Origin: an uncultured Rickettsiales bacterium
GTDB taxonomy: Bacteria; Myxococcota_A; UBA796; UBA9615; CAYRNR01
Assembly (NCBI GenBank): GCA_964639985.1
Contig: CAZXHG010000012.1
Span: 1,254-65,253 of the forward strand
Length of the DNA stretch: 64,000 nt
Reading direction: 5' to 3'
Shown: in pieces, positions 2,599-59,331 of the stretch
Layout of the letters: each line of letters opens with the position of its first letter
Position numbering within the stretch: position 1 is the first letter of the stretch
Made by a program: the position numbers and the translations under genes
Notes under the pieces: model-generated
Database searches by the model: none
Seen by the model: only the letters and a program-made list of their open reading frames with translations
Told to the model about the DNA's origin: nothing

Positions 2599-2599
2599 C

Positions 2600-5623: not shown

Positions 5624-5643
5624 GCGATGGGAGGGACAGCACG

Positions 5644-8166: not shown

Positions 8167-8244
8167 GCTGTGCGGTTCGCGGCAGGTGAACAGGCGGGGG
8201 GCCGGGATCGGGCGGAGGTCCGCCGGGAGGAGGGGAGCACACGC

Positions 8245-19946: not shown

Positions 19947-19948
19947 CG

Positions 19949-38341: not shown

Positions 38342-38609
38342 CGGGATTTCTCGGACAGGAGGATTCAGATCTCTTCCAGGTCGCCCTAGCGACGAGGGTT
38401 GCGCGCAGCATACATCGGGCTGGTGCGGGTTGCATCCAGCGCTGATCGACCCCCTCGAATCCCGCTCTCCCCCCGAGGAGTCGACGTCTGTTCTCCGGTA
38501 TACTGCCGCGGGCGAGGTGCGTGGGCGAGGGGCAGCCGTGGCCACGGTTGGCCGGATGCCGGAGCCTCAACCCCAGTGCCTCTCGTCAGGCGGGCGGATA
38601 CTACCGACG

Positions 38610-40480
38610 TGAAAGACCGACCGACCATACTCGGATTGAATGCCGTCTACGGCCAGAGTTCTGCGGCCCTGGTGCGGGACGGTCAACTTGTGGCCGCCGT
38701 GGAGGAGGAGCGGTTCAACCGGATCTCCCACGCCAAGGCAGCCGAGGTGGACAACACCCCCGACCTCCCCTATGCCTCCATCGACTACTGCCTGGACGAG
38801 GCGGGGATCGAGTTCGAGGACATCGATCTGATCGGCTACTCCTTCGACGTCGGTGTGCGCCGTGAGCAGCGAAGTCGGTTGATGGAGTACGGCCCGGTGC
38901 TGCCCGGGGGGTACAAGACACCGGAGGGCGAGCGACGATTCGAGTCGTTCGTGATGCTGGTGCCGGAACTGCTGGCCGCACGCTACGGCTTGCACCCCGG
39001 TGACGTCTGGCGCCGCTTTCGGTTTCTCGAGCACCACCTCTGTCACCTGGCAGCCGCGTACTACGCGTCCCCGTACGACAGCGCCGCGGTAATGGCGATC
39101 GACGGTATCGGCGAGGCTGCCACCGTCTCTTTCGCACGGGCCGAGGGAAACGCACTGACGATCCTGCGCCAGATCGACTACCCCCACTCCGTCGGGTTCA
39201 TCTGGGAGCTGATTACGTCGTTCCTTGGCTTCAGGGGGGACCACGACGAGAGCAAGGTGATGGGACTGGCAGCCTACGGGGATCCTGAGCGGTTTGCCCG
39301 CCAGCTGTCCACGTTCCTGCGCATCACCGCGACCGGAGTCGAGGTGAGCGGATTCAAGCGACAGGACCGGCAGGAACTGCTTCGCCGTGACTACCACGCA
39401 CTGGAACGATATCTCGGTATCCAGCGCCGCCTACCCTACGAACCGTTGGCCTTCGAGGGGTCGAAGCGCGATCACGCCGATCTGGCTGCGGCCTTGCAGC
39501 GGCGGACCGAGGAGGTCTTCCTGCACCTCGGTGGCCTGCTGCACCGGGAGACCGGCGAGAGCCGGCTGGCCATGGCTGGCGGCGTCGCCCTCAACTGCGT
39601 GGCCAATGCACGGTTGGCCGAAGAGGGGCCGTTCGACGAGTTGTGGGTCCAGCCAGCGGCTGGCGACGCCGGGACGAGCCTGGGCGCTGCCTTGCTACTG
39701 CATTGCCATCCCGATCCCCGTCTGGGCGCTGGTGCGGGCCGCGTCCGGATGGACAGCGTCTACCTTGGCCCCGAATTCTCCGATGCCGAGATCAGCAACA
39801 CGTTGTGGCGCTATCGTCTGGTCCACCAGCGAGTGGACGATCCGGCCCGGACCGCAGCCGAGTTGCTCGCCGATGGCAAGATCATCGGCTGGTTCCAGGG
39901 GCGGATGGAATTCGGACCGCGGGCGCTGGGCAACCGCTGCCTGCTCGCGCATCCGGGTCGATACGAGATGCGCGAACGGCTCAACCTGCGCGTCAAGCAT
40001 CGCCACCCTTTCCGTCCATTCTGCCCTACCATGCGCGCCGAAGTGGCGTCCGAGTGGCTCCAATCGAGCCGGCCGGCATGCGACGCGGCGCAGTACATGC
40101 TCGCCGCCTACGCGATCAAGGAGGGACGCCGGGCCGAGATCCCGGCCGTGGTACACGCCGATGGCACGGCCCGGCTACAGGTGCTCCAACGAGAGCAGAA
40201 CCCGCTGTACTACGAACTGATCCGGCACTTCGAGCGGCTGACCGGCCTGCCTTTCGTGCTGAACACTTCGTTCAACGACCGCGAGCCCATCGTCTGTTCG
40301 CCGGATCATGCGGCTGAGTGCTTCCTCAAGACCGACTTCAGCGCCATGTTCCTTGGCCACTACCTTGTCGAGGGCCCCAAGCCCTGGGAGCGAGAGGAGG
40401 GAGAGAGCGCCACTTTCAGCGAGGTGCTCGAGGACTTCTACCGCAGTGGCCACAAGAATCGTGGGGGGGGGGAGCTACCG
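38610..40480 (+). CDS. Carbamoyltransferase (NodU/CmcH family); as given it reads through in frame into the next gene
   Basis: Probable GTG start 38610 (VKDRPTILGLNAVYGQSSAALVRDGQLVAAVEEERFNRISH, the NodU/CmcH N-terminal signature); ORF opens at 38399. C-terminal carbamoyltransferase region ...VLNTSFNDREPIVCSPDHAAECFLKTDFSAMFLGHYLVEG. No stop before ATG 40481 because of a G10 tract. Confidence 0.8.
40463..40472 (+). repeat. G10 homopolymer tract at the carbamoyltransferase / HEPN-kinase junction
   Basis: Ten consecutive G read as GGG GGG GGG G-AG. With G9 the frame becomes ...AGC TAC CGA TGA, placing a TGA stop overlapping ATG 40481. Confidence 0.9.
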
Positions 40481-43174
40481 ATGAGCGATGAACGCTTCGT
40501 GGTCAGTGATCATGCGATGTTCACGGTCGAGCAGTATCCCTTGCCGATCGGGGACGCTGCCAGGGATTTCAATCAGGGTTTCAGGAGTCTGAGCGACCGG
40601 GAACTTCAGAAGCAATGGCGAGACCAGTTCCTCGACTACGTCAACATCGCGGAGGATTGTTTCAGGCTGGCAACCAACGTGATGTTGGCCGAACTGTCCG
40701 TACGAGGTGACCTGGCCGATCTGAGGGAGTTCTTCACCAGCTACATGACCGAGACCATGACACTCGGCAGGTGGATTGACTCCACGTTCATGCTGGCGCA
40801 GAAGCCCACGGCTGACCAGGCGCGGAGTGAGCTGGCCGGAGGACGCTCCAGCGAACCTCGCTTCAGGAACCTGGTCGTCATCGGGTTCCCACGGAAGCAC
40901 AGCCGGCGGCAACATGCCCTCAAGATGCGTGACTATCGCAACAAGGTCGCTCACCGAAAGGGAAAGAGACAGAAAGCCAGACAAACCCCGCTGACAGATA
41001 TCCTGCGGATGCGTGACATCATGCTGGACGTGATGTCCGGCGGATTCTCCTTCCTTCGGCACTTCACACTCATTCAGGTATGCGCAAACGGGCAATGCAG
41101 GTTCATCTCCGACCTGGGTTCCTTCAGGGAATCACCCGTGCCCATCGAGAAGTTGTTCAAACACAATGATCTTGAGGAACTGATCGACGTCAGCAGGAAT
41201 GATGATCTTCTGCTGTTCGACGCCGTCCATAACTCGATCATGACCTTGTTTCCGTTCGTGGTTCTGAATCCGGCAAACAAGAAGGTGCCTGCGGTTTCCT
41301 GTTTGCATACGATTCATGGCATCGATGATCCTGCAGGAGCGACCTTCAGGTATTTCGATGGCGAGACGGACGGAGAGGACTGGCGACCCTCGACTGACCA
41401 GGAGGATCGCGCCCGAGGGTGGTTGCGAACCGTACTGCAAGCGAAGGCGCCGCCCGCAACACGGGGGGTCTTCCTGAGAAATGACCGCTGGCGAGTGCCC
41501 GGGCTCTTCGAACAGAAGATGTACGATACCAGTAGGAGGCAGAACAGGGAGTTGGCGACTCTCACCAGCGATGTTATCCCGGAAGGTACTGATGAGGCAG
41601 ATGTTGTTGGAAAGCCGTACAGGGTTGACGAGTACTTGGGGGAAGGCGCGCACGCGATAGTGTGGGGTGTCAGTGAGGTCGACGACCTCAGTAAGCGCTA
41701 TGCACTCAAGGTACTGCGACTGTGCTACGGGGAGGACAAGGTGCTCTCCCGATTCAAGCGGGAGGCCCGTGTGTTGCGCCGGTACACCATGGACGACAGG
41801 TGGTCTCCCTATCTCATCGATTGCTATGATCACGGATTCAACGAGAATGGCATGCAATGTCAATTGCTCGAAAAGGCGAAGTGGTCTCTCAAGGACAAGA
41901 TCGAGGAGTACGACCGAAGAGGAAACGAGTTGGCGGGGTGGAGCATCCCGCGGTGCATCCGTGAGTTCGATCGGTGCCGGTCAGAGCATCACGCGCGAAA
42001 CGTCGACCTTCTCGTGTCGGTTTTCTTGCGGCTGATGTTCGCCCTGTCGTGTGTCCGGAACATCCTGAGTGCGCTGGAGAAACTGCACGAAGGTGGCGTC
42101 GTGCACAGGGATATCAAGCCAGCGAATATCCTGTTCCTCCAGAGAGGCCAGATCAAGCTTGCCGATCTCGGCGCGTTGCACATTGAGAAGGAGGACTTTG
42201 AACAGACGCCTCTGGACAACATGGGGTCGACCCAGAGAAGCGAGATCATTGGGACCCATGGCTACATGCCACCGAACAGTTTCGAGTTGGCCGAGCCCAG
42301 GAATTTCAAGGCGGATGTCTTCTCTACAGGTGTCGTATTTCGAGAGATCCTGTTCGGGCTGCGTGTTACACCTGAGACCTATTTCAGCGACAGTGAAAAG
42401 GAGGTCAGGGAGTTCGGCAAGCTAGATGACCTGATCGTGGAGCAACTCGCATGGGACGGCGAGATGCTCGTCAGCGGGCTCGTCCAGAGCGCCACCAACC
42501 GCAACAAGGAGCGGCGGTGGAGTTCAACGCGGTTCCTCGACGAGGTCGTTGAATTCGAGAAGAAGTACTGCAAGAAGCTGATGCTGTGGGCAAAACGTCT
42601 GGGGTACTCCCAAGAGGGTACGGGGGCCCTGTTCGTCAGGGCGCTCACCAAGATTGGATTCGAGAACAAGACAGGACGCAATCACTGTTTCCTGTTGCCC
42701 AAGCACCCCGAAAGGGGCGAAACCAGGGAGTGTGTATTCAGGAGGAATGTCTCCAGCTTGAAGTCAACCAGTGTTGCCGCCAGGTTGTACACAAAATACA
42801 ATGTTGGCTCGCAGCAAGGACAGTTGCCACCGGACGCTGACGAACTGGACGTTCTCGAATACCTGGTCGAACACTCGGAAGAGTGCTTCACCGACCTGAT
42901 CGAGCTGGTCACCTATATGTTGGACACCTGTACCGGCTTCTACAATGACTGTCCGGCGCATGAGAAGTCCCGGAGGAACATCTCCAGGCTGCTTAAGAAC
43001 AGGAAGTACACGGACACGAATCCCGCGAAGGAAAGGGTGCGGGAAGTGATCGAGCCCGAGTCCGATGTGCATGGATACCAAGACAGACACCCGCGGCAGG
43101 AGGCCGGCGAAGCCCTCATCCACGCCGTGATGTTCGGCGGTCTCGACCAATCCGTCGAGCCGCAGGAGAGATGA
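40481..43174 (+). CDS. HEPN-like (Rx4H) domain fused to a Ser/Thr protein kinase domain, with unknown middle and C-terminal regions (897 aa)
   Basis: ATG 40481 (MSDERFVV). N-terminal ~165 aa helical with MRDYRNKVAHRKG (Rx4H, as in Abi_2/Swt1/KEN HEPN nucleases). Kinase: glycine loop LGEGAHAIVWG, Lys in YALKVLRL, catalytic HRDIKPANILF, DLG, GTHGYMPPN. Markedly lower GC than flanks. Confidence 0.6.
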   Translation: MSDERFVVSDHAMFTVEQYPLPIGDAARDFNQGFRSLSDRELQKQWRDQFLDYVNIAEDCFRLATNVMLAELSVRGDLADLREFFTSYMTETMTLGRWIDSTFMLAQKPTADQARSELAGGRSSEPRFRNLVVIGFPRKHSRRQHALKMRDYRNKVAHRKGKRQKARQTPLTDILRMRDIMLDVMSGGFSFLRHFTLIQVCANGQCRFISDLGSFRESPVPIEKLFKHNDLEELIDVSRNDDLLLFDAVHNSIMTLFPFVVLNPANKKVPAVSCLHTIHGIDDPAGATFRYFDGETDGEDWRPSTDQEDRARGWLRTVLQAKAPPATRGVFLRNDRWRVPGLFEQKMYDTSRRQNRELATLTSDVIPEGTDEADVVGKPYRVDEYLGEGAHAIVWGVSEVDDLSKRYALKVLRLCYGEDKVLSRFKREARVLRRYTMDDRWSPYLIDCYDHGFNENGMQCQLLEKAKWSLKDKIEEYDRRGNELAGWSIPRCIREFDRCRSEHHARNVDLLVSVFLRLMFALSCVRNILSALEKLHEGGVVHRDIKPANILFLQRGQIKLADLGALHIEKEDFEQTPLDNMGSTQRSEIIGTHGYMPPNSFELAEPRNFKADVFSTGVVFREILFGLRVTPETYFSDSEKEVREFGKLDDLIVEQLAWDGEMLVSGLVQSATNRNKERRWSSTRFLDEVVEFEKKYCKKLMLWAKRLGYSQEGTGALFVRALTKIGFENKTGRNHCFLLPKHPERGETRECVFRRNVSSLKSTSVAARLYTKYNVGSQQGQLPPDADELDVLEYLVEHSEECFTDLIELVTYMLDTCTGFYNDCPAHEKSRRNISRLLKNRKYTDTNPAKERVREVIEPESDVHGYQDRHPRQEAGEALIHAVMFGGLDQSVEPQER

Positions 43175-43177
43175 CCG

Positions 43178-45193
43178 ATGCTGAATACACGTGGAATCCA
43201 GTACCCGGATGACTACCCGCTCGCGATCCAGCGCCTGCAGCAGGCTTTGGTGATGCTGCGCGAGACGAGGGTCGCCCTGCTGGACAAATGGAAGCGCGAC
43301 AACCAGAAATTCCAGGACGAGTTCGTGGTAAAGGAGTCCGGCGGCACGGGTGGCGAGGACGTGCTGCACCTGCCCTTCATCTACGGACTCGAGACGCTGC
43401 TCATGCCCATCGGGTTGATCACGGCGGAGTGCGCAAAGCGCAAGCGGTTGGTGGAAAGCCTGGATGTGCTTGTGCCTGCGCTGAAGGACTTCCGAGTCGA
43501 CGACATCGACGAGAACACGATCAATGATATCAACGGCCTCGTGAAGCAGTTCGACCGGGAGATCGGACCGGCTGTACGCGCCGTCGACTACGAAGGTCTC
43601 AACGCACAGCCGTACTTCAACAAGTGGAACGACGATGCCAACGCATGGGCTACTGCGCTGTTTTTCGATGCCACGGACTACTTGAACTCGGCGGGCCTGA
43701 TCAACCCCGAGCAGTACATCGAACGGGTGAACAACCTATCGATGCTGCTCAAGAAATTTCTCTTTGCGAAGTACGTTGTCGAGTGGAAATCTGACCTGGA
43801 CGAGAACGTCCAGTTGTTCGGATTGACCTGGTACTTCAGCGACGAGTCCCGGCGACGGATCAGTCGATATTTCCAGAAAAGCGGATCCGACTTCGACGGC
43901 CCCGTGGTCCAGGCGTTCATCGAGGACTATTTCGTCTGCGAGACGCGGGCATTCTGCTCCAGGGCCGTCCTGGCGGTCTACGATGTGATCTACGACACCT
44001 TCGGCGATTCGGACATCGCGACCGACGAGATCAAGAAGCTGGTAGGCAGGATCGGGGCGAGGTTCGCCAAGGACCTAGCTCACCGCTATCTCCAGGACAT
44101 GGATAACTCCATCGAGCGAGCCTACTTCGACGATCTGTACCGCACCGACTATCTGGTACAGCTGTGGGGCGTGTACACGTCCTGCCTACACACGGGCATC
44201 ATTGCCGAGAGCCAGGGAGGGGAGGTCGAGATCGATTTGCTCGTCCGCTACCACGACGAGTTCTTGAAGCCTCTGCTCAAGACCATTCGGAGGGAGATTC
44301 GGGACGATCACTCACCCCTGTTCACGACGGTGAAGCCGTTCCTGATCTGGCTGGACGAGCCTGCAGAGATAGAGCCCGCGGACGTCCATCCGGAAGAGAC
44401 GGTGGAGAAGTTGGGGGAGGACCGTTGCCTGGTATTCCCCTACGTCTCCCTGCTCCCGATCATGTTGCGGTCGCTGGCCAACTACGCTGGTGCCCTGAAG
44501 GACATCAAGGATCCGGGGGGCAAGCAGAACGTCCGTCGGATGAGGAACGAAGCCCTCGATTGGATGCACGAGGTCCTGGAAGGTATGACCCAATTCGCCA
44601 TCTCGGACGGGGACGAAGCGGGGCTGTGGGCGTTTTCCGGGCAGTACGAACTGGCCTACACCGCATCCATCGCCGAGGCGCTGACGACCTATGCTTCGCA
44701 GTGTTTCAACGAGGTGGTGGATCTGGGGAGGACCCGGATCGTGGACTTGGCAGAGCCGTTGAGGAAGGCAGGATCGGCAGCTGGAGCGGTCGTATCCGAG
44801 GCAGACTCGGAGGCCGTGCGCGCGTTCAAGGAATTCCGCAAGGTTCTCGACCTGCAGGTCCGACGGATCGTTGCCGAGGAGTTGGACGGTCGTGATCTCC
44901 AGGGGCGGTCAGGTGGGAGCAGCCAGTGGATGGAGATATTCTTCGATATCATCGAGAACAAGGGCAACATGGCGCCTCACTCCAACGACGCCCTGCAGGC
45001 GATGAGGGATCTCATCAGGCTGTCCAAGCGGCTGGATCGGCTGCGGGGGCGCGGAGAACCGGAATGGGAGCAGCTGCGGGATAAGATCAAGTCGGGCTAC
45101 TTCAACAACGAGATAGCCTATGACGTGCTGACCCGGGAGTACCATGGCGACATCGACGACCTGCTGAAGAACAAGACGGACAAGACGAAGTGA
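43178..45193 (+). CDS. Hypothetical protein (671 aa), no recognisable domain; middle gene of the low-GC island
   Basis: Starts 4 nt after the stop of the HEPN-kinase gene. Uninterrupted ORF in the low-GC region. Its TGA overlaps the GTG of the next gene. Confidence 0.55.
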   Translation: MLNTRGIQYPDDYPLAIQRLQQALVMLRETRVALLDKWKRDNQKFQDEFVVKESGGTGGEDVLHLPFIYGLETLLMPIGLITAECAKRKRLVESLDVLVPALKDFRVDDIDENTINDINGLVKQFDREIGPAVRAVDYEGLNAQPYFNKWNDDANAWATALFFDATDYLNSAGLINPEQYIERVNNLSMLLKKFLFAKYVVEWKSDLDENVQLFGLTWYFSDESRRRISRYFQKSGSDFDGPVVQAFIEDYFVCETRAFCSRAVLAVYDVIYDTFGDSDIATDEIKKLVGRIGARFAKDLAHRYLQDMDNSIERAYFDDLYRTDYLVQLWGVYTSCLHTGIIAESQGGEVEIDLLVRYHDEFLKPLLKTIRREIRDDHSPLFTTVKPFLIWLDEPAEIEPADVHPEETVEKLGEDRCLVFPYVSLLPIMLRSLANYAGALKDIKDPGGKQNVRRMRNEALDWMHEVLEGMTQFAISDGDEAGLWAFSGQYELAYTASIAEALTTYASQCFNEVVDLGRTRIVDLAEPLRKAGSAAGAVVSEADSEAVRAFKEFRKVLDLQVRRIVAEELDGRDLQGRSGGSSQWMEIFFDIIENKGNMAPHSNDALQAMRDLIRLSKRLDRLRGRGEPEWEQLRDKIKSGYFNNEIAYDVLTREYHGDIDDLLKNKTDKTK

Positions 45194-46224
45194 ACATCGT
45201 CGCGTATTCGTACAAGGGCGGCTCCGGAAGGACGACCGCGGCGATGAACATCGCCGCCAACCTCTTCCGCCGGGGCAAGATCGTTTGCTGCATCGACTTC
45301 GACATCGGTGCGCCAGGCATGCACATGATCCTGGAAACGACCATTCCGCCGAGGGAAGGCGAAACCGACCTGATCGCTCGGCGGCTCGGTGACGTCTCCC
45401 CGCTTGGAGTGCAGCATTTCTTCAACAACCGTTACCCGCGCCCCGGCGTGGACGAGAGTACGTTCGTCGAGCAGGCGGTGGTCGACTACAAGGAGCATTA
45501 CGCCCAGCTCGCCTGGACGGAAGACGATGCACTCAACAAGAGAGACATGACGCAGGACGCCTTCGACCAGGGCGAGTTGCTGTACCTGGTCGCCTCCCCG
45601 GTTGCCGAATCGATTCGAGCCCTGGATGCCCAGAAGTTCGACATGATGGGATTCCGGCGCCGCTACCGTTCCCTGATGGAGCGGGTCGCCGACTACATCA
45701 ACGACAAGCGCGGCACCGACGAGGTGAGTGCCGAGGACATCTACTTCGTTCTGGATTCGGCGAGTGGCTTGACGCCGTTCAGCCTGCCGGTCCTCTTCCT
45801 GGCGCACGTGGTGCTCGTGTTCTTCCGGTGGAGCCACCAGCACATCGTCGGTACCGAACAGAATGCCGAGATCCTGCACCACAACCTCGACGAGCGGGTC
45901 GACTACTCGAACTGCCGCATCTACAAGGTGGGCTCCTGTTATGTCCCGGCCGGGGACAGCGATACGCTGAATCAGATGAAAGAAGAAGGGGATCTGGCGG
46001 CACGCCGCATCTTCGATCGGGAGACAGAACTTCGGACGGCCCTGGAGTCCGACCGGATGATCCGCTTTATCGATAGCATCCCCGAGCACCCCGCGTTGAA
46101 GTACTACGAGCGAATCGTCGCGCTGGCGATCGACGCGAAGACGAACTACGGCGGTGTCCGCGAGGCGCTGGACAACATCTGCGCACAGCTGGAAGACGAC
46201 CGACTGGTGCTCGACATCGATTGA
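45190..46224 (+). CDS. ParA/MinD-like (SIMIBI) ATPase with degenerate P-loop
   Basis: Deviant Walker A YKGGSGRTTAAMN (KGGxGKT expected; P-loop Lys replaced by Arg). A-prime-like CCIDFDIGAPGMH. GTG start overlaps the upstream TGA (GTGA). Confidence 0.6.
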   Translation: MNIVAYSYKGGSGRTTAAMNIAANLFRRGKIVCCIDFDIGAPGMHMILETTIPPREGETDLIARRLGDVSPLGVQHFFNNRYPRPGVDESTFVEQAVVDYKEHYAQLAWTEDDALNKRDMTQDAFDQGELLYLVASPVAESIRALDAQKFDMMGFRRRYRSLMERVADYINDKRGTDEVSAEDIYFVLDSASGLTPFSLPVLFLAHVVLVFFRWSHQHIVGTEQNAEILHHNLDERVDYSNCRIYKVGSCYVPAGDSDTLNQMKEEGDLAARRIFDRETELRTALESDRMIRFIDSIPEHPALKYYERIVALAIDAKTNYGGVREALDNICAQLEDDRLVLDID

Positions 46225-46253
46225 ACTCGACGACTCTAGCCAGTCGTACTATC

Positions 46254-47282
46254 TCAGCGGACAAAACGGCCCCCCTGGCCGACGTCGTCCGGCGGCGGAT
46301 CCACGCGGTGCAAGCCGCTATCGGCGGCCGCGGCCGCCAGCGTGGCCACCAGTTCGTCGGCGGCGGCAGGCAGGTCGTCGAACAGGTAGCGAGGCAGGAA
46401 CGGGATCAGCTTGAGGGTCAGGTCGGCGTCGATGGCCGCCAGTCGGGCGGCCACAGCTCGGACCTCGAACACGTCGATGTAGCCGGGGACGACCAGGAGT
46501 GAAGGGCGGATCAACTCGACCCGCTCCGCGGGACCGAATTCCGCCCGAAGCCGCTCGATGTTGCGCCACACGCGAGTGTTACCTGTACCGGTGAGGGCAA
46601 GATGGACGGGTTCGGTGCCAGCCTTGAGACCGATGTTGAAGCCACCGCCCGAGTCGTGGACCAGGTGGGCGAATGGCAGCAGGAGATCCCCCGGCGCCGT
46701 CAGGTTGGTCTCGGCGCAGATACGCATCACCCGGTCGGCGTAGCGTTCCCGAACGAGCACGGCGATGCGTGTCACGGCCGCCAGCTGGACATCTGGTGTG
46801 CCCCCACAGAAGCAGACGCACGTCGTACGGTCGTCGATCCAGTCGAGGATCTCGTCGTCGGTGAATCGGGGCTTGGCCGTCTCGGCCATCGTCTTGTGGA
46901 TCCAGTCCTGGCAGAACAGACAGTCGAAGTTGCATCCCGCGGTGAACACCGCGAGGTTACGGCAGCCTGCCTCGACACCGGGACTGACCGCGAAATCAGG
47001 GTACCCGCAACCTGTGGTTCCGGGACACTGCCACGAGGCGATGCAGTTCGCCGGGTGATCGTCGTAGAACCCCATGGCGACCAGCATGTCGTCTTCCGGC
47101 ACAGGTCGTACCGGATCCGGCATGTCGCCAGATTGCCTCAGAGCCTGCCTTCGAGCCTGCTCCACGAGGGGAAGGGCCTGCTTAGGGTCGGTGCGCACGC
47201 AATCGACGCAGCATCCCACCGATCGAGCCACGATCACATCGTGACGACCGCACAGGGCACAGGGGAGAGGGGGGGCGTCCAT
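46254..47282 (-). CDS. Radical SAM enzyme (PflA-activase-like) with N-terminal Cys-rich zinc-ribbon-like motif
   Basis: Start MDAPPLPCALCGRHDVIVARSVGCCVDC. Radical SAM CX3CX2C in AVFTAGCNFDCLFCQDW. Glycine-rich VCFCGGTP. Confidence 0.7.
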   Translation of the reverse strand: MDAPPLPCALCGRHDVIVARSVGCCVDCVRTDPKQALPLVEQARRQALRQSGDMPDPVRPVPEDDMLVAMGFYDDHPANCIASWQCPGTTGCGYPDFAVSPGVEAGCRNLAVFTAGCNFDCLFCQDWIHKTMAETAKPRFTDDEILDWIDDRTTCVCFCGGTPDVQLAAVTRIAVLVRERYADRVMRICAETNLTAPGDLLLPFAHLVHDSGGGFNIGLKAGTEPVHLALTGTGNTRVWRNIERLRAEFGPAERVELIRPSLLVVPGYIDVFEVRAVAARLAAIDADLTLKLIPFLPRYLFDDLPAAADELVATLAAAAADSGLHRVDPPPDDVGQGGRFVR

Positions 47283-47286
47283 CGAT

Positions 47287-47979
47287 CTACCAGAATCCCT
47301 TCCACCACATCGCGAAGATGCTCTGCCACCAGTAGTCCAGGGCCTGGAAGTTCGGCGTGCCGGGAACGCCGGACGTTGCTTCGATGGCAGTCGCAGTTGC
47401 GGCCGTGTCGGCGCCTGCGAGCAGTCGTGTCGGGATGGCAGCGTGTCCGGGATACGGCTCGAACCGGGTGTCCTCGTCCGAATCGAGTTCGGCGCGGGTC
47501 GCCGAACCGAAGAAACGGAAGACGAGCTCGCGCATCTCGCCGTGCAGCTGCGTACGCCGGGCACGGCGCATCGCCGACCACCGCGGTATCTCAGCGCAGA
47601 TCAGATCTGCCAGCCGGCGCGCGGCGAGGTCGCGACGGCCTGGGCGGTATCGCCACTGGTCGGCGACGGAGGCGGTCGCGATGAGGCCGCCCGTCTCGCT
47701 GGCCTGTGAAGCGAGGTCCTGGACGAATTCCGGCCAGGGGCCGCATACGATCCAGGCGCCAGTGTCCGAGAGGTAGGACCGGGTGTTTGTTCCGTGGTCG
47801 AGTGTCACCCGGCCCGGTCCGTCGAGTACCTGTTCCGCAGAACACGCCGATGCCCATGCGCCGGGATCTTCGAGCAACAGGGTCGTCAGATGATGATTGG
47901 CCACCACGACGTGTCGGACGTCATCGTGGTCTATGACCTCGTAACGGCGCCCCTCAACCTTGACTAGGCGAAGCGGCAT
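47287..47979 (-). CDS. Hypothetical protein (230 aa), Trp-rich C-terminus
   Basis: ORF between two radical SAM genes, overlapping both by a few nt. No recognisable motif. Confidence 0.45.
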   Translation of the reverse strand: MPLRLVKVEGRRYEVIDHDDVRHVVVANHHLTTLLLEDPGAWASACSAEQVLDGPGRVTLDHGTNTRSYLSDTGAWIVCGPWPEFVQDLASQASETGGLIATASVADQWRYRPGRRDLAARRLADLICAEIPRWSAMRRARRTQLHGEMRELVFRFFGSATRAELDSDEDTRFEPYPGHAAIPTRLLAGADTAATATAIEATSGVPGTPNFQALDYWWQSIFAMWWKGFW

Positions 47980-49415
47980 GCATCCACCTCGGCGCCGGGG
48001 CCTCTCTCCAGCCGTTGCAGTCGGCCTAGTTCTTCCCGTGCCCTTTTTCGGAGCAAGCCCACGTCCAGATTCGGTCCGTCACCCGTCTGGCTGGTGAACA
48101 GGTTGGCTCTTCCGGTAGTGCTCACCCATCGCTTCGAGAGGATCGATCCAGTGTAGGCCTCGAAGAAGAGCTTCTCCACGTCAGACGGATCGATGCCTGG
48201 ATAGCGAACTACCGACCGCACACCGCTGTACAGCCGGAGGTCGGTGGAGGCCAGGCGGTCCTCGGCCAGGAGAGCCTGGAAGAGCGGCGTTCCGGGAACC
48301 GGGATGAGCAGCGTGAACACGTTGACGCAACCGCGATCCGTGAATTTTTCGGTAGCCCTCAGGCGGCGGTCGAGGCTGGTAGCATCGTCATCGGGCTCGC
48401 CGAGCAGGAACGATGTGGTGGGGAGCATGTCTGCCGCGACGAGCCGGTCCACAGCTCTGAGTGCGGTATCTGCGGCGAGTCCCTTGCTGTACCTGGCCAG
48501 GTTGGACTCCTCCAGCGACTCCACCCCGATCCACATCATCCGGCACCCAGCCTCGTGCAGGAGGGGGAGTAGATCCGCGTGTTGGACCACCCAGGCCGCA
48601 TGCCCGAAACACCACCAGCGGATCTCAAGCGACCGGTCGATCAGACCGCGGCAGATCGCCTCGACGCGGTCGGCACGGACGGTGAACGTGTCGTCCCAGA
48701 TAGACCAGTCGTGGATACCGTGCGTGACCACGCCGTGTTCGACTTCATCCAGCACGGCATCGATCGGTCGGGAGACATACCGTCCCTTGAAGTGTGCCGG
48801 TGTCGCGCAGAACACGCAGCGATGTGGGCAGCCTGTCGCGGTCAGGATGGGGAGGACCGGGAAGACCTCGCTTCCGGGGTCGTCGAGATAGAGGGAACGG
48901 GCGATGCCATAGCTCTCGATCCCTGGAACCAGGCAGGAGAGGCCATCCGCGCGTCGAAATCGAGGGCCATTCACGGGGCTGGGGGCCAGGTGGGAATCCA
49001 TGGCGGCTTCATCTGGAACCAGCCCATCCACGCTCCGGGCATCCTCTGCCGCCAGATCGGGAAAGCGGCGCGGCATGTATCCACCGAGCAGGATCTTCAC
49101 CGTGGGCAGCACCTCTCGTATACCGTGGGACAACTCGAGGTCGTAGGGATATGCTGCGGCGCCCATGAACACGTGTAGGTGGAGTTCCGGGAACGCTCCG
49201 ACGAGCACCAGGTCCGGATCAAGATCCGCCACGCGACTCGCGAGTGTCGGTGCGTCCTCGCGGAGCATCTGCCCGTCGAGGACCGTGACGTCGTGACCAC
49301 GATCCGTCAGCTTGGCGGCAACGCGGCAGGCGCCGTACGGCGGGCTGCTCATCCCCTGCGCGTAGTAGAACCACGAGAGGGCGCGGTTCCAGGCGTTGAC
49401 GAAGACGATCCTCAA
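47964..49415 (-). CDS. B12-binding-domain radical SAM protein (class B)
   Basis: N-terminal Rossmann-like B12-binding region (RIVFVN..., DLVLVGAF, KILLGG). Radical SAM motif LTATGCPHRCVFCATP. Confidence 0.75.
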   Translation of the reverse strand: MRIVFVNAWNRALSWFYYAQGMSSPPYGACRVAAKLTDRGHDVTVLDGQMLREDAPTLASRVADLDPDLVLVGAFPELHLHVFMGAAAYPYDLELSHGIREVLPTVKILLGGYMPRRFPDLAAEDARSVDGLVPDEAAMDSHLAPSPVNGPRFRRADGLSCLVPGIESYGIARSLYLDDPGSEVFPVLPILTATGCPHRCVFCATPAHFKGRYVSRPIDAVLDEVEHGVVTHGIHDWSIWDDTFTVRADRVEAICRGLIDRSLEIRWWCFGHAAWVVQHADLLPLLHEAGCRMMWIGVESLEESNLARYSKGLAADTALRAVDRLVAADMLPTTSFLLGEPDDDATSLDRRLRATEKFTDRGCVNVFTLLIPVPGTPLFQALLAEDRLASTDLRLYSGVRSVVRYPGIDPSDVEKLFFEAYTGSILSKRWVSTTGRANLFTSQTGDGPNLDVGLLRKRAREELGRLQRLERGPGAEVDACRFA

Positions 49416-50326
49416 CGACCATCCCCCTCGGGACCAGGAACAGCTGCCAGCCAGGACCGACTGAAGGCCAGCGTCTCGTCGCGACGGGGGTAGAGACGGC
49501 GGAAGTCGGCCCCCCGCGCGACGACGGCCTCCCGGGCGATGTGTCCGGGAAGCAGGGACCGGATCTCCCGTTTGATCCTCTCCTCGTCGAACGGTCGACA
49601 GGAGAAGAGATCGAGGTAGGCTTCGTCGCGTTCGGGATAGGCGTGCAACGTGATGTGGCTCTCGGCGATCATCGTCATCGCACTGAGCACCGGTCCGTGG
49701 GATGCTGTCTGGTTTCGCACCAGGTACGGGCGCATGATCGGCGTCATGCCCACGGCAGAGGGCAGCCGGTCGAACAGGTCGAAGAGCCGGTCCATGTCGT
49801 CGGGGCCATCGTACTCCTCGATATCCAGGAACAGGTGGGGTCCGAAATCGCTCGCGGGTTGGTGCGGTCGTTCGCTAGGGCTGTTCTGGGTCCGATCGAG
49901 CACGCCAAATTTCACATGTCGGCACGGGAACGCGTCCTGTAGGGCTGAGGCCACCTCCTCCTCGTCGTAGGGATCGGCGCTCACGAGGTCGAAGAAGAAT
50001 TCCTCGCGAAAGGGGAAGGTGTGCAACGTGATGTGCCCTCCGGCCAGGAACAAGAACGAGGAGATGCCTGCGTCCTCCGGCACGACCCCGTTGTAATAGG
50101 GGAGTATGAACGGCGGCATGGCCGGCCGTAGCCCCAATTCGGGGGGGACCTCTTCGAGGAATTCGTACACCAGATGGATGTCGTCGAAACGGGATCGGTA
50201 CCCCTGGATGCCGTCGTAGTGGAGGTGCTTCAAGTCGGTCTCCAGGCTGGGCGTGATCCGGCTGGATGCTGGGCGGCGGTAGGGCCTCGGTTGCCCGGGG
50301 GGTGGTGTCTGGTGAAGCCTGCCCAC
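49412..50326 (-). CDS. Tandem-duplicated S-adenosylmethionine decarboxylase-like (pyruvoyl-dependent) protein
   Basis: Two AdoMetDC(SpeH)-like halves. Half 1 has LFLAGGHITLHTFPF and lacks the processing Ser. Half 2 has MIAESHITLHAYPE, the canonical ES-H self-cleavage/pyruvoyl site. Confidence 0.6.
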   Translation of the reverse strand: MGRLHQTPPPGQPRPYRRPASSRITPSLETDLKHLHYDGIQGYRSRFDDIHLVYEFLEEVPPELGLRPAMPPFILPYYNGVVPEDAGISSFLFLAGGHITLHTFPFREEFFFDLVSADPYDEEEVASALQDAFPCRHVKFGVLDRTQNSPSERPHQPASDFGPHLFLDIEEYDGPDDMDRLFDLFDRLPSAVGMTPIMRPYLVRNQTASHGPVLSAMTMIAESHITLHAYPERDEAYLDLFSCRPFDEERIKREIRSLLPGHIAREAVVARGADFRRLYPRRDETLAFSRSWLAAVPGPEGDGR

Positions 50327-50404: not shown

Positions 50405-50550
50405 TCAGTCGTCGTACCACAGCGGTATCGAATCGGCCCTCAGGTCGTGCTTGGTGAACCCTGCCAGTTTGGCGTGATCGAAGTGCCAGCGCCGATCAGC
50501 CCTCCGCGCTAGGTCCAGGTGCAGGTAGCCAGCGTCAACGAAGATCATCC
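50405..50550 (-). CDS. Candidate small peptide (47 aa), possible leader/precursor of the radical-SAM cluster
   Basis: ATG preceded by AGGAGGAGG. Peptide MIFVDAGYLHLDLARRADRRWHFDHAKLAGFTKHDLRADSIPLWYDD. The ORF also opens further upstream at GTG 50641. GC3 bias weaker than in neighbours. Confidence 0.25.
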
Positions 50551-50637
50551 TCCTCCTCATACACGATCTCCCAGCGAAGCCCTCGGCGGGTCCGCCACTG
50601 TTGCGAGCTGCAGTATAGACAAGGTCCGGGGAGAGGT

Positions 50638-50907
50638 TCACCCCTCCTGGCTACGGTCAGGAGGAGAGGAGCCTGGAGTACCGCCCAGCCACTCCACAAC
50701 CACCAACCCCAACGGCCCCGCCATCGTCCACACCCCATCCGTGACCATGTCCCACACCTGGTAGCCCAGCCCGAAGTCCTTCCCCACGGCCCAGAAGTCC
50801 CACCAGTCGCGGGCCTCGCTCACGGACTGGATCAGCATCGCCGCCCCGAGCGCCCACAAACAGGTATGGGCGTGCCTCCATGCGACAGCGCGCACCAGCA
50901 GGTACAC
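50638..50907 (-). CDS. Small Trp-rich hypothetical protein (89 aa)
   Basis: Strong GC3 bias. One hydrophobic segment. Its stop overlaps GTG 50641 of the next ORF (GTGA). Confidence 0.3.
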   Translation of the reverse strand: MYLLVRAVAWRHAHTCLWALGAAMLIQSVSEARDWWDFWAVGKDFGLGYQVWDMVTDGVWTMAGPLGLVVVEWLGGTPGSSPPDRSQEG

Positions 50908-50998
50908 CGCCAGTCCGATGATCGCGTGCAGCAGCGGGTCGTCGAGTCCGGTTCTGCTGACCAGCTCCTTGACGTCGGTGATCAGCGCGCCCCCCCCC

Positions 50999-51739
50999 TC
51001 ACCGCACGATCTCGTGTCCCAGGATGGCCACGGTGTCCACGCGCAGGCGCAGGCGCATGTTCTTCTTCTGATCGGTCTCGAACAGCAGGTCGGGGCAGGC
51101 GGACAGGCGCTGGCCCTCGCGCTCCAGCAGGCGGGTCCACCATTGCCGCAGGCGGCTGCGGCTGGTGTAGACGCGGCTGCCCGGGTTGGCCGTGGGGCTG
51201 GTGGGGCCGCCGTAGGCCTCGAGCACCTCGAGCTCGTCCTCCCACGACAGCCAGCCGAAGTCGCGCTGGCCGTCGTAGCACGACGCCAGGGAGCGCAGCA
51301 GGGTCCACTGCTGGCGGCGGATGGTGTTGTCCTCCACCGGGTGGGCGCCGATGGCGATGCGGACCAGGCCGGGCTCGGGCAGGCTGAGGCGGCGGATGCG
51401 GGTGCGGCGGGCGGTGGACTCCACGCCCTGCGGCTCGGGCAGGCCGCGCAGCACGAGCCGGTGGGAGCCGAGCTCGACCACGTCGTCCGGACCCACGTAC
51501 ACGGTAGCGGCCTCCAGCCAGTTGCCGTTGTACAGCGAGCCGTTGGTGGAGATGTCCTGCAGGCACCAGCCGTTGCTCCAGCGCAGCACCAGGTGCAGGT
51601 GGGACACCGTGCGGCCGTCCAGGCGGATGTCCGCGCGCGCGGACCGTCCCATCAGCAGGTAGGGATCGTCCTGTGGGACGCGCCACTCCTCCAGCTCTCC
51701 GTCGACCTCGATCTCGACCACCATGTCCATGGGCTTCAC
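50999..51739 (-). CDS. FHA domain protein
   Basis: FHA core LLMGRSARADIRLDGRTVSHLHLVLRWSNGWCLQDISTNGSLYNGNWL. Confidence 0.75.
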   Translation of the reverse strand: MKPMDMVVEIEVDGELEEWRVPQDDPYLLMGRSARADIRLDGRTVSHLHLVLRWSNGWCLQDISTNGSLYNGNWLEAATVYVGPDDVVELGSHRLVLRGLPEPQGVESTARRTRIRRLSLPEPGLVRIAIGAHPVEDNTIRRQQWTLLRSLASCYDGQRDFGWLSWEDELEVLEAYGGPTSPTANPGSRVYTSRSRLRQWWTRLLEREGQRLSACPDLLFETDQKKNMRLRLRVDTVAILGHEIVR

Positions 51740-51754
51740 CCCTCCTGTCGTTCG

Positions 51755-53857
51755 TCAGCGTCGGTCCAGCTCGCATTCGCGCGCTGACGCGGTTCGTTGC
51801 AGGCTCTTGGCCTCACCCCACGGTACGCCGCGCTGCTCGACGTACTTCAGGCAGCGGTCGCTCTCGCTGTGCTCGCAGGCGAGGAAGGACTCGGCCACGT
51901 CGTCGCACCCCAGCGCGACCATGGTCATGTAGCCGCACATCTCGGCCGTGCCGCCCACGGGCTCGTCCGGGGGCACCGGGATGGCCGGGCCGCCCAGGGC
52001 GCTGCACTCGCGGTGGCCGGAGCGGTGGATGTGGGAGACCACCCGGTCGAAGGTACGGCCGCTACCGTCCCAGTTGTCCAGCATCCAGCGGCTCCAGTGA
52101 AGCCATGCGTCCATGTCCCGGGCGGACGCGGCCGCGCGGGTGCAGTCCTCCACCAGCTCCAGTCCGTTGATGGGGGCGGAGGGCAGCGCAGGTTCGGCCG
52201 CGTCGCAGGCGTCGAGCGCTGCGCTGGCGTGGGCCAGGGCGGCGGCCGCGTTGCCGTCGATCCACTGGCGGTTGGCCTCCGAGGCCTCCATCATCACCAG
52301 CACCCACCACGCCTCCACCTGCAGCCACTCGTCGTCGGTCAGCTCGATCGCGGCCGTGGCCCTCTCCCGCGCCTCGTCGCACCAGGCGCTGCGGTCGTCT
52401 ACCCCGGACTTCAGCAGGCGGCAGGCAGCGCCTGTCAGGGTGGCACGGGCCAGCAGGGCCTCGGGGGTCTCGCCCGCCTCCAGGGCGGCGAGGGTGAGCA
52501 GGTCGCCCTCCTCGAAGCGCTCCTGGGCCCAGCGCGCGTTGGTCAGGTGCCAGCCCTGCTGCCAGATCCGCGCCAGGGTGAGCATGCCCTGGACCTCGGC
52601 CGGAGCCTGCTGGATTGCGCTGGCCTCGGTGTCCGCGATCAGGCTGGCGAGGTACGTGGCGCCGTTGTGCTCGTACACGGTCTTGTGCTCCTCCAGCCTC
52701 GCCTGCAGCGTGTCCACCTGCGCCTGCGCCTCCTGCTCGTGGCGGTGCCGGTCCTGGTCCCGGGCCGCGCCGTGGCCGGCGAGGAACGCCGCGACCACGG
52801 CTGGCGGCGCCAGCAGGACCAGGCCGACCAGCAGCCGGACGGCCCAGCGGGCCAGGCCGGTTGCGGGTTCGTGAACCGTGGATTCACGGGGTTCTTCGTG
52901 CGCGGGTGTCTCGCCGCTGTGCAGCGAGCGGTCGTCGACCGGGTCCGTGTCCGTGCCCGCGGACGGTGGTGTGCGCGGGTCAGGGACCCGGGTGGTGAGC
53001 GCCTCCACCGAGTCGTTGGCCGGATCGCCGAGGTCCGCAGCCTCGCCCGCGGCAGCCCGGAGCACCTCGGCCGTGGGTGGGCGGTCCTGCGGCTTCTCCC
53101 GCAGGCAGGCCCGCATGATGCGATCCCAGGGGGACTGCAGCGGAGGCGGGAAGCCGGGATCGCCCGGGGGCTTCTCGCCCATCAGCAGCGCGACCATGCA
53201 GCCGAACGAGAACAGGTCCGAGGCCAGGTAGGCCATGGACTTGAAGTTCTGCTCGGGTGCGCCGTATCGGCGGGTGAGCAGGAAGATGGGCGACGGCTGG
53301 CCCGCGTGGCCGACCTGGCGCATGGTGTCGAAGTCGATCAGGTGCACGCCGTGGGCGGTCACGATCACGTTCTCGGGCTTGACGTCGCCGTGCAGGGCGT
53401 TGAGCGCGTGTAGCCGGTCGAGCACGGCCGCGAGCTGGCGCAGGATCTCGCCCCGCTGGTCGCGAGCCATGCCCATCCACACGCGGTGCAGGCTCTGGCC
53501 CTCGACCCAGGCCAGGGTGACGTAGGGCAGACCGGTGCCATCACCCAGCGGGGCCAGTCCGCCGTCCAGGATCGGGGGCAGCCCCTCGATATCGCCGATG
53601 GCGGCCCGGACGCGGTAGCCCTCGAAGATCTGGGGGAGGTCGGCCGGGAGGGACGCGGTGGCCCTGGACTCGCCGCGGGCTGCACTGCGCACGAGGGGCT
53701 CGAGCTGCATGTCCAGGGGTACGTGCGTGATCCGGGTCAGGGCGTCCCCGCCCTGGAATCGGGTGCGCAGCACGTCCCGTCCCTGGTCCATGTCGCGCTT
53801 GACGATGTCCAGCAACCCGTAGCGGTCGTCGAGCTGGTAGGGCAGCAACGTCTTCAT
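51755..53857 (-). CDS. Ser/Thr protein kinase (non-RD), single TM, large C-terminal extracytoplasmic helical domain
   Basis: Catalytic loop HGDVKPENVIV. IDFD. YGAPEQ. TM LLVGLVLLAPPAVVAAFLA. Confidence 0.8.
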   Translation of the reverse strand: MKTLLPYQLDDRYGLLDIVKRDMDQGRDVLRTRFQGGDALTRITHVPLDMQLEPLVRSAARGESRATASLPADLPQIFEGYRVRAAIGDIEGLPPILDGGLAPLGDGTGLPYVTLAWVEGQSLHRVWMGMARDQRGEILRQLAAVLDRLHALNALHGDVKPENVIVTAHGVHLIDFDTMRQVGHAGQPSPIFLLTRRYGAPEQNFKSMAYLASDLFSFGCMVALLMGEKPPGDPGFPPPLQSPWDRIMRACLREKPQDRPPTAEVLRAAAGEAADLGDPANDSVEALTTRVPDPRTPPSAGTDTDPVDDRSLHSGETPAHEEPRESTVHEPATGLARWAVRLLVGLVLLAPPAVVAAFLAGHGAARDQDRHRHEQEAQAQVDTLQARLEEHKTVYEHNGATYLASLIADTEASAIQQAPAEVQGMLTLARIWQQGWHLTNARWAQERFEEGDLLTLAALEAGETPEALLARATLTGAACRLLKSGVDDRSAWCDEARERATAAIELTDDEWLQVEAWWVLVMMEASEANRQWIDGNAAAALAHASAALDACDAAEPALPSAPINGLELVEDCTRAAASARDMDAWLHWSRWMLDNWDGSGRTFDRVVSHIHRSGHRECSALGGPAIPVPPDEPVGGTAEMCGYMTMVALGCDDVAESFLACEHSESDRCLKYVEQRGVPWGEAKSLQRTASARECELDRR

Positions 53858-53870
53858 CGGAGACCCTCCC

Positions 53871-55640
53871 TCACTGCAGGTACCCCAGGTCGTGAGCCGC
53901 CTCGATGATGCGAATGGCGGCCGGGCCTGCCGCCTCTGCGCCCCCGCCGCCCCGTGGAACGACCACCGCGATGGCCAGCCGACCGGGGGCGTGGGCGCCG
54001 CAGGCCTCGGCGTCGGCGGGTTCGGCCAGGGCCACGAACCACGAGTGGGGACGAAGACCGGTGGCGCCGGGCTCGTACCCGAAGACCTGTTCGTCGACCA
54101 TGCCCGCGGCGTCGGCGGTGCCGGTCTTGCCGTAGATGCGTACCCCGTCCACGCGGTCGAGCCGGTGGGCGGTGCCGTGTGTCATGGCCCGGCTCATGCC
54201 CGCCAGTACGGCCTGCAGCCCGGGCTCGTGGTCCGTGACCAGGGTCTCCTCGCAGGCGGCGTCGAGCGCGAGGTCCGGCGGGCAGCGCCGATACACACCA
54301 CCGCTGCCGATCGTGGCCACGAGGCGGGCAGCCTGCGACACGTTCAGCGCGGCCGCGCCCTGGCCGAAGGCCGTGGACGCCAGCTGCCTGGAGCCGGCGG
54401 GGCCGGGCTCGAACGTGGTATCCCAGCCCATGTCCACGCCGTCGGCGACCAGCGACTGGAAGGAGGCGGGGCCCAGGTCCAGGCCGAGCTGCCCGAAGTA
54501 CACGTTGCAGCTGTCCTCGAGCGCGCCCACCAGCTCCAGGTCCGCGCCGTGGTTGGCGTCGAGGTGGTGGTCGTGAACCGGCCGCGGCCAGCCCGGTGTG
54601 GTGAAGTAGGGGCCGTCCGCGTCCCTCAGCGTGCACGGGAAGACCCAGCCGGTGCGCACGGCGCAGCCCTGGCCGTGCACGGGGATGCCGTTGCGGACCG
54701 CGGCCAGCGCGGTGAACAGCTTGGCGGCCGAGCCCGCCTGGAAGAACCCCCGCACGCCGGTCTTGTCGGGCCAGGGGCCGTAGATGCCCACGAAGCGCGG
54801 CTCGCCGGCCTCCAGCCGGTCGATCCACGTGCCGCTGGACAGGTCCACGTCCGGGACCTGGACCCGGGCCAGGATCCGGCCGGTGTGAACGTCGAGCACC
54901 ACGGCCGCGGCCGCCTCGCCCTGCTCGGCGGCCTCGTCGAGGATCGCGGCGATCCGGGCCACCAGCCGGGCGTCCAGGGACAGCCGCACCGAGCGCGACG
55001 CCTTGTCCTGGACCACCGCGTCGATCGCGGCCTCGCGATCGACGGGGCGCAGGTGCAGCAGGGGCACGAACGCGGTCAGGTCGGCGGCTGCGTGGGCCAC
55101 CGGCCGCACGGCCGCGCCGTCGGCCAGGGCCTCGGCGCGCTCGCGGCCGTCGTCGGGTTCGGTGCCCTGCTCGACCGCGAGCACCAGGCGCTCGCGGCCG
55201 TCGGGCCCGCGGGTCTTCCACGCGATCACGGGCCGTGCCCGGTCCGGGTACCCGCGCAGGACCGTCTCGTACTGCCGTTCGAGCATCCACGGCTGCCGCA
55301 GGGTGAGGTCGCCGTCCGGGGGTCCCAGCAGGGTACCGATGTCGTCGCCCAGCGGCCAGGTCCTGCTGCCGTCCGGCGCGGTCCCCGCGAGGACCTCGTC
55401 GTTGCGGTCCAGGATCTCGCCGCGCAGCAACTGGCCGCTGATCGCCTCCAGCCGGGGATCGTTGTCCAGGCGCACGGTGCCGTCGCGCAGGGTGGTGACC
55501 ACGGCCCGCGCCGAGGTGGCCGGTCCGTTCATGACCCCGAGCCACGCCAGCCAGCCCCCGGCCGCCGCCAGGGTGAGCACGCTGGCGACGAGCAGCACCG
55601 ACAGGGTGGCTCGCAGCTCGCGCAGCTCGCGGGTGACCAC
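53871..55640 (-). CDS. Class B penicillin-binding protein (transpeptidase); in frame with the upstream RodA-like gene, boundary approximate
   Basis: TM LSVLLVASVLTLAAAGGWLAWL. SxxK in GSAAKLFTA. SxN in DSCNVYF. KTG in IYGKTGTAD. Confidence 0.7.
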   Translation of the reverse strand: MVTRELRELRATLSVLLVASVLTLAAAGGWLAWLGVMNGPATSARAVVTTLRDGTVRLDNDPRLEAISGQLLRGEILDRNDEVLAGTAPDGSRTWPLGDDIGTLLGPPDGDLTLRQPWMLERQYETVLRGYPDRARPVIAWKTRGPDGRERLVLAVEQGTEPDDGRERAEALADGAAVRPVAHAAADLTAFVPLLHLRPVDREAAIDAVVQDKASRSVRLSLDARLVARIAAILDEAAEQGEAAAAVVLDVHTGRILARVQVPDVDLSSGTWIDRLEAGEPRFVGIYGPWPDKTGVRGFFQAGSAAKLFTALAAVRNGIPVHGQGCAVRTGWVFPCTLRDADGPYFTTPGWPRPVHDHHLDANHGADLELVGALEDSCNVYFGQLGLDLGPASFQSLVADGVDMGWDTTFEPGPAGSRQLASTAFGQGAAALNVSQAARLVATIGSGGVYRRCPPDLALDAACEETLVTDHEPGLQAVLAGMSRAMTHGTAHRLDRVDGVRIYGKTGTADAAGMVDEQVFGYEPGATGLRPHSWFVALAEPADAEACGAHAPGRLAIAVVVPRGGGGAEAAGPAAIRIIEAAHDLGYLQ

Positions 55641-56975: not shown

Positions 56976-56989
56976 CTCGCCGATGCGGA

Positions 56990-58438: not shown

Positions 58439-58439
58439 C

Positions 58440-59327: not shown

Positions 59328-59331
59328 CCGG

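Follow-up and report, generated by a model that had tools for sequence, protein, structure and literature searches.

The locus described here raises the question of whether two neighbouring genes, one for a carbamoyltransferase and one for a protein with a kinase domain, form a single fused gene, are joined and parted reversibly by changes in the length of a homopolymer, or are two ordinary genes joined in the record by a single erroneous base. The genes lie in a stretch of 64,000 nucleotides (nt) of contig CAZXHG010000012.1 from an uncultured Rickettsiales bacterium, the whole of which is referred to below as the window, and the element in question is a run of ten G residues at their junction. 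A preliminary description of the window had drawn attention to this run and had placed a homopolymer error and a phase-variable switch side by side as explanations. The evidence presented below favours the error: with a probability of roughly 0.8, the native tract consists of nine Gs and leaves two distinct, translationally coupled genes, the deposited consensus having gained its tenth G through a homopolymer error of one base. Tract lengths are written G9, G10 and so on, and the features at issue are the following (aa, amino acids).

38609–40484, + strand: carbamoyltransferase gene, NodU/CmcH type; with G9 it ends at the TGA at 40482–40484, with G10 it has no stop and goes on to 43174
40463–40472, + strand: G10 homopolymer in the window sequence, G9 in five other assemblies; encodes Gly-Gly-Gly near the C-terminus of the carbamoyltransferase
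40471–40474, + strand: GGAG, a Shine-Dalgarno-like motif made up of the last two Gs of the tract and the AG that follows, 6 nt 5' of the ATG at 40481
40481–40484, + strand: ATGA overlap of the G9 form, kinase start and carbamoyltransferase stop (genes at 8157–10004 and 10001–12694 in L001, one of the loci compared below)
40481–43174, + strand: kinase protein of 897 aa, with an orphan N-terminal region of ~380 aa, a Ser/Thr kinase domain at ~aa 383–684 (Pkinase, 7.3e-23) and an unassigned C-terminal region of ~210 aa

The G tract and the reading frame

The G10 run is present at 40463–40472 of the window sequence, as described earlier. Its context is CGT-G10-AGCTACCGATGAGC, and the wider surroundings read ...AAGAATCGT-GGGGGGGGGG-AGCTACCGATGAGCGATG..., in which the ten Gs occupy these positions. 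As deposited, the frame is open from a TTG at 38399 to 43174, or 1591 codons. The preliminary description had attributed 1591 aa to a start at 38610; this number belongs to the TTG at 38399, and from the plausible start, the GTG at 38609, the fusion product is 1521 aa long, with the junction peptide ...NRGGGELPMSDER.... Other gene callers start the carbamoyltransferase at TTG 38636 or GTG 38576.

When the tract is resized in silico, the frame stays open into the kinase gene with G7, G10 and G13. With G9 or G12 the product ends in ...NRGGGSYR, and the TGA at 40482–40484 overlaps the ATG at 40481–40483 to form ATGA. With G8 or G11 it ends in ...ATDER, at a stop three codons further than that of the G9 form. 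The earlier frame logic, in which removal of one G gives a stop overlapping the ATG and addition of one G gives a stop three codons on, is reproduced by this resizing.

Both domains of a NodU/CmcH-type carbamoyltransferase (PF02543 and PF16861) score above the Pfam gathering threshold: Carbam_trans_N at aa 7–362 (2.7e-58, 198.5 bits against a cut-off of 24) and Carbam_trans_C at aa 417–588 (8.8e-64, 214.6 bits against a cut-off of 27). They fall within residues 1–624 counted from 38609, the C-domain ending at residue 588, and the tract comes after both, within the last six codons of the carbamoyltransferase gene. The kinase keeps its own predicted ribosome-binding site and its ATG at every tract length. 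GGAG- or GAGG-type motifs stand at -8 to -15 before most genes of the window, and the GGAG at 40471–40474 is taken, from its sequence and spacing, as the putative ribosome-binding site of the kinase. Neither a promoter-like nor a terminator-like site was found at the carbamoyltransferase/kinase junction.

From these elements the following arrangement may be proposed. The G run would be ordinary coding sequence, three Gly codons near the 3' end of the carbamoyltransferase gene, and its last Gs, together with AG, would double as the ribosome-binding site (GGAG) of the kinase. In the natural population, with G9, the carbamoyltransferase would end in ...NRGGGSYR followed by a TGA that overlaps the kinase ATG, and one transcript would yield two separate proteins through translational coupling, as at several other operon junctions; 4-nt overlaps, which the preliminary description had claimed for further junctions, are indeed seen at several others in the window. 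Translational coupling of the two genes is suggested by the overlap geometry. The tenth G in the consensus of the record would then delete the stop and create an artefactual fusion open reading frame (ORF) of 1521 aa.

A run of this length calls for no special explanation. There are four G/C runs of at least 9 in the window, compared with expectations of 4.75 under independent and identically distributed bases and 1.9 under a first-order Markov model, and two of at least 10, compared with 1.6 and 0.58, respectively. The G10 tract is not beyond what the composition of a sequence of 67% GC gives, and long G/C runs are not enriched. The other long runs are a C10 at 2463–2472 and a G9 on the + strand at 57631–57639 (C9 on the coding strand of the PP2C gene), both listed previously, and a C9 at 50990–50998, which had been missed.

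Tract length in other assemblies

The tract was compared among about 30 loci, taken from contigs that encode the 897-aa protein and its neighbours. JGI and ENA metagenomes contain an identical 897-aa protein (P0001), annotated there as a gene of its own. The tract is G9 in five contiguous assemblies of different samples (JGI 3300009128, 3300009008 and 3300007510; ENA ERZ23498658 and ERZ23498660), which represent at least five sample identifiers and two haplotypes, and all of these have one gene call for the carbamoyltransferase (615 or 635 aa, according to the start codon) and another for the kinase (897 aa), with an overlap of 4 nt. By locus, G9 is read in L001–L004, L022, L025, L030 and at the end of L023, and G10 only at the start of L005.

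Apart from the tract, the sequences are essentially the same. Contig Ga0118727_1001880 matches window positions 30480–63857 (33.4 kb) with no mismatch and with a single gap, which is the G. Locus L001 likewise shows 0 mismatches and 1 gap, again the G, over 22.7 kb, and L015 shows 0 further differences over 22.1 kb. L002 differs from the window by six single-nucleotide polymorphisms (SNPs) and therefore represents a distinct haplotype; its tract is also G9, so that G9 is the shared and presumably ancestral state. The population is nearly clonal, and G10 is linked to no other variant in the compared contigs. Positions 8624–30479 of the window lie outside independent contig coverage, and the 460-aa ORF at 19754–21136 is not on record.

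The 1521-aa fusion has been deposited at NCBI (P0169 in the protein collection, from a 72,513-bp contig), and its 1512-aa and 1532-aa start variants are absent from the protein collection. The protein cluster at 90% identity has seven members, which are G9 and G10 products only, with no G8 or G11 product among them. Scans of metagenome_contigs, genome_contigs and viral_contigs for exact matches to the junction pattern, whether or not a gap of variable length was allowed, gave none. A search of the literature for the sample and run accessions likewise gave no match.

Homologous proteins and syntenic junctions

The best 120 homologues of the carbamoyltransferase are all between 555 and 663 aa long and contain the two carbamoyltransferase domains only; a kinase domain is found in none of the 120. 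Nor does any of 48 kinase matches contain a carbamoyltransferase domain. A conserved natural fusion, which would have told in favour of the fused form, is not seen on either side. The closest homologues (50–70% identity) share the tail ...VEGPKPWER...F and stop 5–25 residues after it, as does the G9 product. The C-terminus of the predicted G9 product is in register with theirs.

Syntenic loci were fetched for three close homologues, P0049 (70% identity), P0053 (57%; source named as Candidatus Aminicenantes) and P0056 (54%). In the four syntenic loci, whose carbamoyltransferases are 54–70% identical to that of the window, the carbamoyltransferase and the kinase are separate adjacent genes (4/4). 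The junction consists of a TAA and 16 nt in L031, of a TAA and 22 or 7 nt in L033/L034, and of an ATGA overlap in L035, and a G tract is found at the junction of none of them.

Assembly behaviour at long G/C runs

The assemblies themselves show signs of difficulty at the tract. The graph of ERZ23498668 forks there, the left contig ending in ...CGT-G9-AGCTAC and the right contig starting with G10-AGCTACC. In JGI 3300013118 the contigs break 26 nt before the tract and resume 3 nt after it. Similar trouble occurs at other long runs. L014, from ERZ23498668, breaks off at a distance of 40 nt from the C10 at 2463, carries 5 substitutions and 2 indels, and reads the run as C11. L011 has T>G and A>C miscalls directly beside the C10 at 2463–2472, and such miscalls are clustered there in two assemblies in all (window positions 2421–2472; L011 and L014). 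The length C10 of this run, which is in frame in gene 1, is agreed upon by three other assemblies. The end of L021, from 3300013118, lies 22 nt from the C9 at 50990. No such trouble is seen at the G9 at 57631 in five contigs.

The trouble at the C10 and C9 runs affects the two assemblies that also break at the G tract, and these runs are either intergenic or could not change length without harm. Long G/C runs thus seem to degrade these read sets in general, from a technical cause. Since these samples break or miscall at long C runs elsewhere, a technical cause is sufficient for G10 as well. In Illumina metagenome contigs at 10x coverage, ~1% of genes have been reported to carry homopolymer-associated single-base errors (Luo et al. 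2012, PMC3277595).

Two further observations concern the contigs used. Six independent contigs end within 50513–50968. The stretch 50513–50998 holds minus-strand ORFs of 51 aa (50405–50560) and 66 aa (50638–50838) and the intergenic C9 at 50990–50998, directly after the stop of the FHA gene; a search for repeats around 50.5–51.0 kb that might explain the cluster of contig ends found nothing. In addition, Ga0105013_1028528 (L030) differs from the window by an A>C at 42117, which changes the catalytic-loop sequence HRDIKP of the kinase to HRDITP and is probably another miscall rather than a natural variant.

Weighing of the explanations

The reading of the tenth G as an error, which the preliminary description had offered as one of its alternatives, is thus strongly supported, by G9 in five assemblies, by flanks that are otherwise identical, and by homologues and syntenic loci that are unfused. 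We infer a technical origin of the extra G in preference to a rare variant that is real, and the 1521-aa fusion would then, in all likelihood, be artefactual, or else no more than a rare product of slippage without adaptive value. Several points weigh against this reading. Runs of at least ten Gs have been seen twice, in the window record and at the start of L005 (ERZ23498668), so that reads of this kind have occurred more than once. Some of the ENA assemblies may be re-assemblies of JGI reads, in which case the number of fully independent read sets would be below five. Moreover, conserved neighbours probably work together, so that a fusion of the two proteins would not be biologically absurd.

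One alternative is that slippage in the tract is real and non-adaptive, G9 being dominant and a G10 subpopulation reaching the consensus, or forking the graph, in some samples without any regulatory role. In cells with G10 the carbamoyltransferase would carry a tail of 897 aa, and initiation at the internal ribosome-binding site and ATG would probably yield free kinase in addition. G/C runs of at least nine are intrinsically hypermutable in bacteria, both G9 and G10 contig ends occur within the one sample ERZ23498668, G10 recurs in the separately deposited NCBI contig, and no SNP is linked to G10, as recurrent slippage would give. However, long C runs at which variation is not expected also cause breaks or miscalls in these samples, and slippage should produce contractions as well as expansions, yet the seven-member cluster at 90% identity holds neither a G8 nor a G11 product. 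We therefore consider such slippage unlikely, though it is the least improbable of the alternatives. A selected switch, in which G9 gives two coupled proteins and G10 a carbamoyltransferase–kinase fusion, is far less probable. G9 and G10 are the sole lengths seen, a pattern that technical stutter would give as well, both proteins belong to one conserved module, and fusing them could plausibly alter the activity of that module. Against this, the tract lies at the extreme 3' end of the first gene, past the catalytic domains (end of the C-domain at aa 588 of 624), and with G8, G9 or G11 the two proteins are unchanged except for at most six terminal residues; there is therefore no ON/OFF logic. 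The tract is also missing from the junctions of all four syntenic lineages, long runs are not enriched, no fused homologue is known among the matches, and the kinase retains its ribosome-binding site and ATG throughout. The suggestion of a phase-variable switch in the preliminary description is accordingly not supported, the position of the tract in the last codons, its absence from homologous loci and the lack of enrichment all speaking against it. If the heterogeneity between G9 and G10 were real after all, it would be an unusual case of slippage toggling the fusion of functionally linked partners: a reversible joining of two coupled module members into one polypeptide of ~170 kDa, that is, a phase-variable fusion and not an on/off switch, which we hold to be very improbable. 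Least probable of all, by a little, is a genuine fusion fixed in the strain of the record, a recent Rosetta-stone event brought about by a one-base insertion. The ORF is open as deposited, a 1521-aa product stands in NCBI, and fusion of functionally linked neighbours is a known course of evolution. The homologues and syntenic loci include no fused relative, however, and the record is not a distinct lineage, because it is identical to the G9 contigs at all other positions over 33 kb.

The conserved module and the drop in GC content

The junction is part of a longer gene order that recurs in relatives. The syntenic loci have in common the order carbamoyltransferase, kinase, a protein of 650–736 aa without assigned function, and a ParA-like ATPase, and near these modules stand a B12-binding radical S-adenosylmethionine (radical-SAM) gene, a gene for a protein of 211 or 230 aa, and a second radical-SAM gene. 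The corresponding genes downstream of the kinase in the window are as follows.

43178–45193, + strand: protein of 671 aa without assigned function, third gene of the module; no Pfam family; 21–23% identity to the syntenic 652–736-aa proteins (E 7e-14 to 6e-4)
45190–46224, + strand: ParA/MinD-like P-loop ATPase, fourth gene of the module; CbiA, ParA and AAA_31; 33–34% identity to the syntenic proteins (E 1e-60 to 5e-37)
46254–50326, - strand: radical-SAM, 230-aa, B12-binding radical-SAM and AdoMet_dc-like genes (Pfam on called genes)

The ParA-like gene overlaps the 671-aa gene by 4 nt. The radical-SAM, 230-aa and B12-binding radical-SAM genes are kept with the module in relatives, with 59%, 40% and 49% identity, respectively, to their counterparts in L031. 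Identity to the window proteins drops steeply along the module from the carbamoyltransferase, which is highest at 70%; for the kinase it is 22–24% over the aligned region, which covers the kinase domain and, in L031, extends into the C-terminal region. The module, present in at least four divergent lineages, occupies 38609–50326 in the window, 1714–13094 in L031, 5342–17830 in L033 and 8001–17896 in L035. L033/L034 additionally contain an NMT1-type ATP-binding cassette (ABC) transporter; such a transporter, methyltransferases and an AdoMet_dc-like or deoxyhypusine-synthase-like gene are often found beside the module. It may be a biosynthetic or peptide-modification cluster. This uncharacterised carbamoyltransferase/kinase/unknown/ParA-like/radical-SAM module is a more interesting object than the fusion.

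The preliminary description had placed the tract at the boundary of an island of low GC content. The drop itself is real: the GC fraction is 0.644 in 40000–40499 and falls to 0.58–0.55 in 40500–42999. An island inserted at the tract from a foreign source was considered as its origin and ruled out, for distant relatives have the same gene order and, at the corresponding junction, the same fall in GC. The trio of kinase, 650–736-aa protein and ParA-like ATPase lies 4–17 GC points under the carbamoyltransferase in three of four lineages (0.43–0.44 versus 0.52 in L031, 0.33–0.37 versus 0.50 in L033 and 0.57–0.61 versus 0.66 in the window). The drop at the junction is therefore a conserved property of the module and not the edge of a recent insertion, and the tract bears no special relation to it.

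The N-terminal region of the kinase

The kinase had been labelled a HEPN-kinase. The Rx4-6H motif on which such a label would depend is present as RNKVAH at aa 153–158, and the syntenic kinases of 917–920 aa have VRNTKVAH or RLRNLVIH together with a common FPFV motif, their N-terminal regions being otherwise unalignable. A Pfam scan of the N-terminal region with E up to 10 gave no match to HEPN or any other family, and PADLOC gave a generic match to the kinase domain only. An exhaustive HMMER search of the N-terminal region against 1.84 billion representatives returned only the protein itself, and a single-sequence AlphaFold2 model of the region was unusable (pLDDT 33.8). The motif thus stands, but neither profile match, detectable homologue nor usable fold accompanies it, and the HEPN assignment should be taken as a motif-level lead and not as a finding.

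Consequences and other genes of the window

For curation, the deposited 1521-aa 'carbamoyltransferase-kinase' is to be treated as two proteins, of ~615–635 aa and 897 aa, and should not be used to seed inferences on domain architecture or Rosetta-stone relationships. An effect on public data is already visible: because the fusion has been deposited, the 90%-identity cluster lumps carbamoyltransferases (615/635 aa) with kinases (897 aa). This lumping may explain why the homologue search gave no 100% match to the carbamoyltransferase's own cluster, and is a concrete downstream effect of a one-base error on public clustering.

Two other groups of genes may be mentioned. At 50999–60066, on the - strand, lie genes for an FHA protein, a Ser/Thr kinase of 700 aa, an FtsW/RodA-transpeptidase fusion of 1040 aa and a PP2C phosphatase of 482 aa, with two more ORFs. 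We take this gene order to resemble the actinobacterial cell-division cluster fhaA-fhaB-pstP-rodA-pbpA-pknA/B; in the window cluster, RodA and the penicillin-binding protein form one polypeptide. At 13–8166, the first gene extends in other contigs to a 1198-aa Tubulin_2 (PF13809) protein and is followed by genes for a 1007-aa protein without assigned family and an 840-aa Peptidase_C1 protein.

Comparison with known systems

Rosetta-stone fusions resemble this case in that at least four divergent lineages have the carbamoyltransferase and the kinase as conserved neighbours. They differ in that the only fused copy here is the window record, with none in the 120 carbamoyltransferase matches or the 48 kinase matches.

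Poly-G/C contingency loci, as in Campylobacter, Neisseria and Haemophilus, have their tracts early in the coding region or in promoters, switch genes on and off, and occur as many loci per genome. At some of them one tract length merges two annotated ORFs, the merged form being the full-length functional gene seen in homologues. The present tract is like these in being a G run of 9–10 nt that sets the reading frame and in occurring with two lengths in nature-derived sequence. In contrast, its place is among the final codons, the two proteins come out the same at most lengths, fusion is not seen in the homologues, and there is neither conservation of the tract nor enrichment of long runs.

With genes coupled through ATGA the G9 form shares the TGA/ATG overlap and a GGAG 6 nt upstream, and the L035 junction is also ATGA. 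There is nothing unusual to set against the likeness, the coupling here being deduced from geometry.

A further parallel is with homopolymer errors in short-read metagenomes. Here, too, the difference is confined to homopolymer length between otherwise identical sequences, as judged from assembled contigs, the discordant length breaks a conserved gene architecture, and contig breaks and miscalls stand beside long G/C runs. The difference is that the indel removes a stop and merges two genes, with no truncation, and annotation pipelines therefore raise no frameshift or pseudogene flag. A homopolymer indel just before an overlapping stop and start, which merges the genes on either side, is thus a failure mode that filters for frameshifts and pseudogenes miss.

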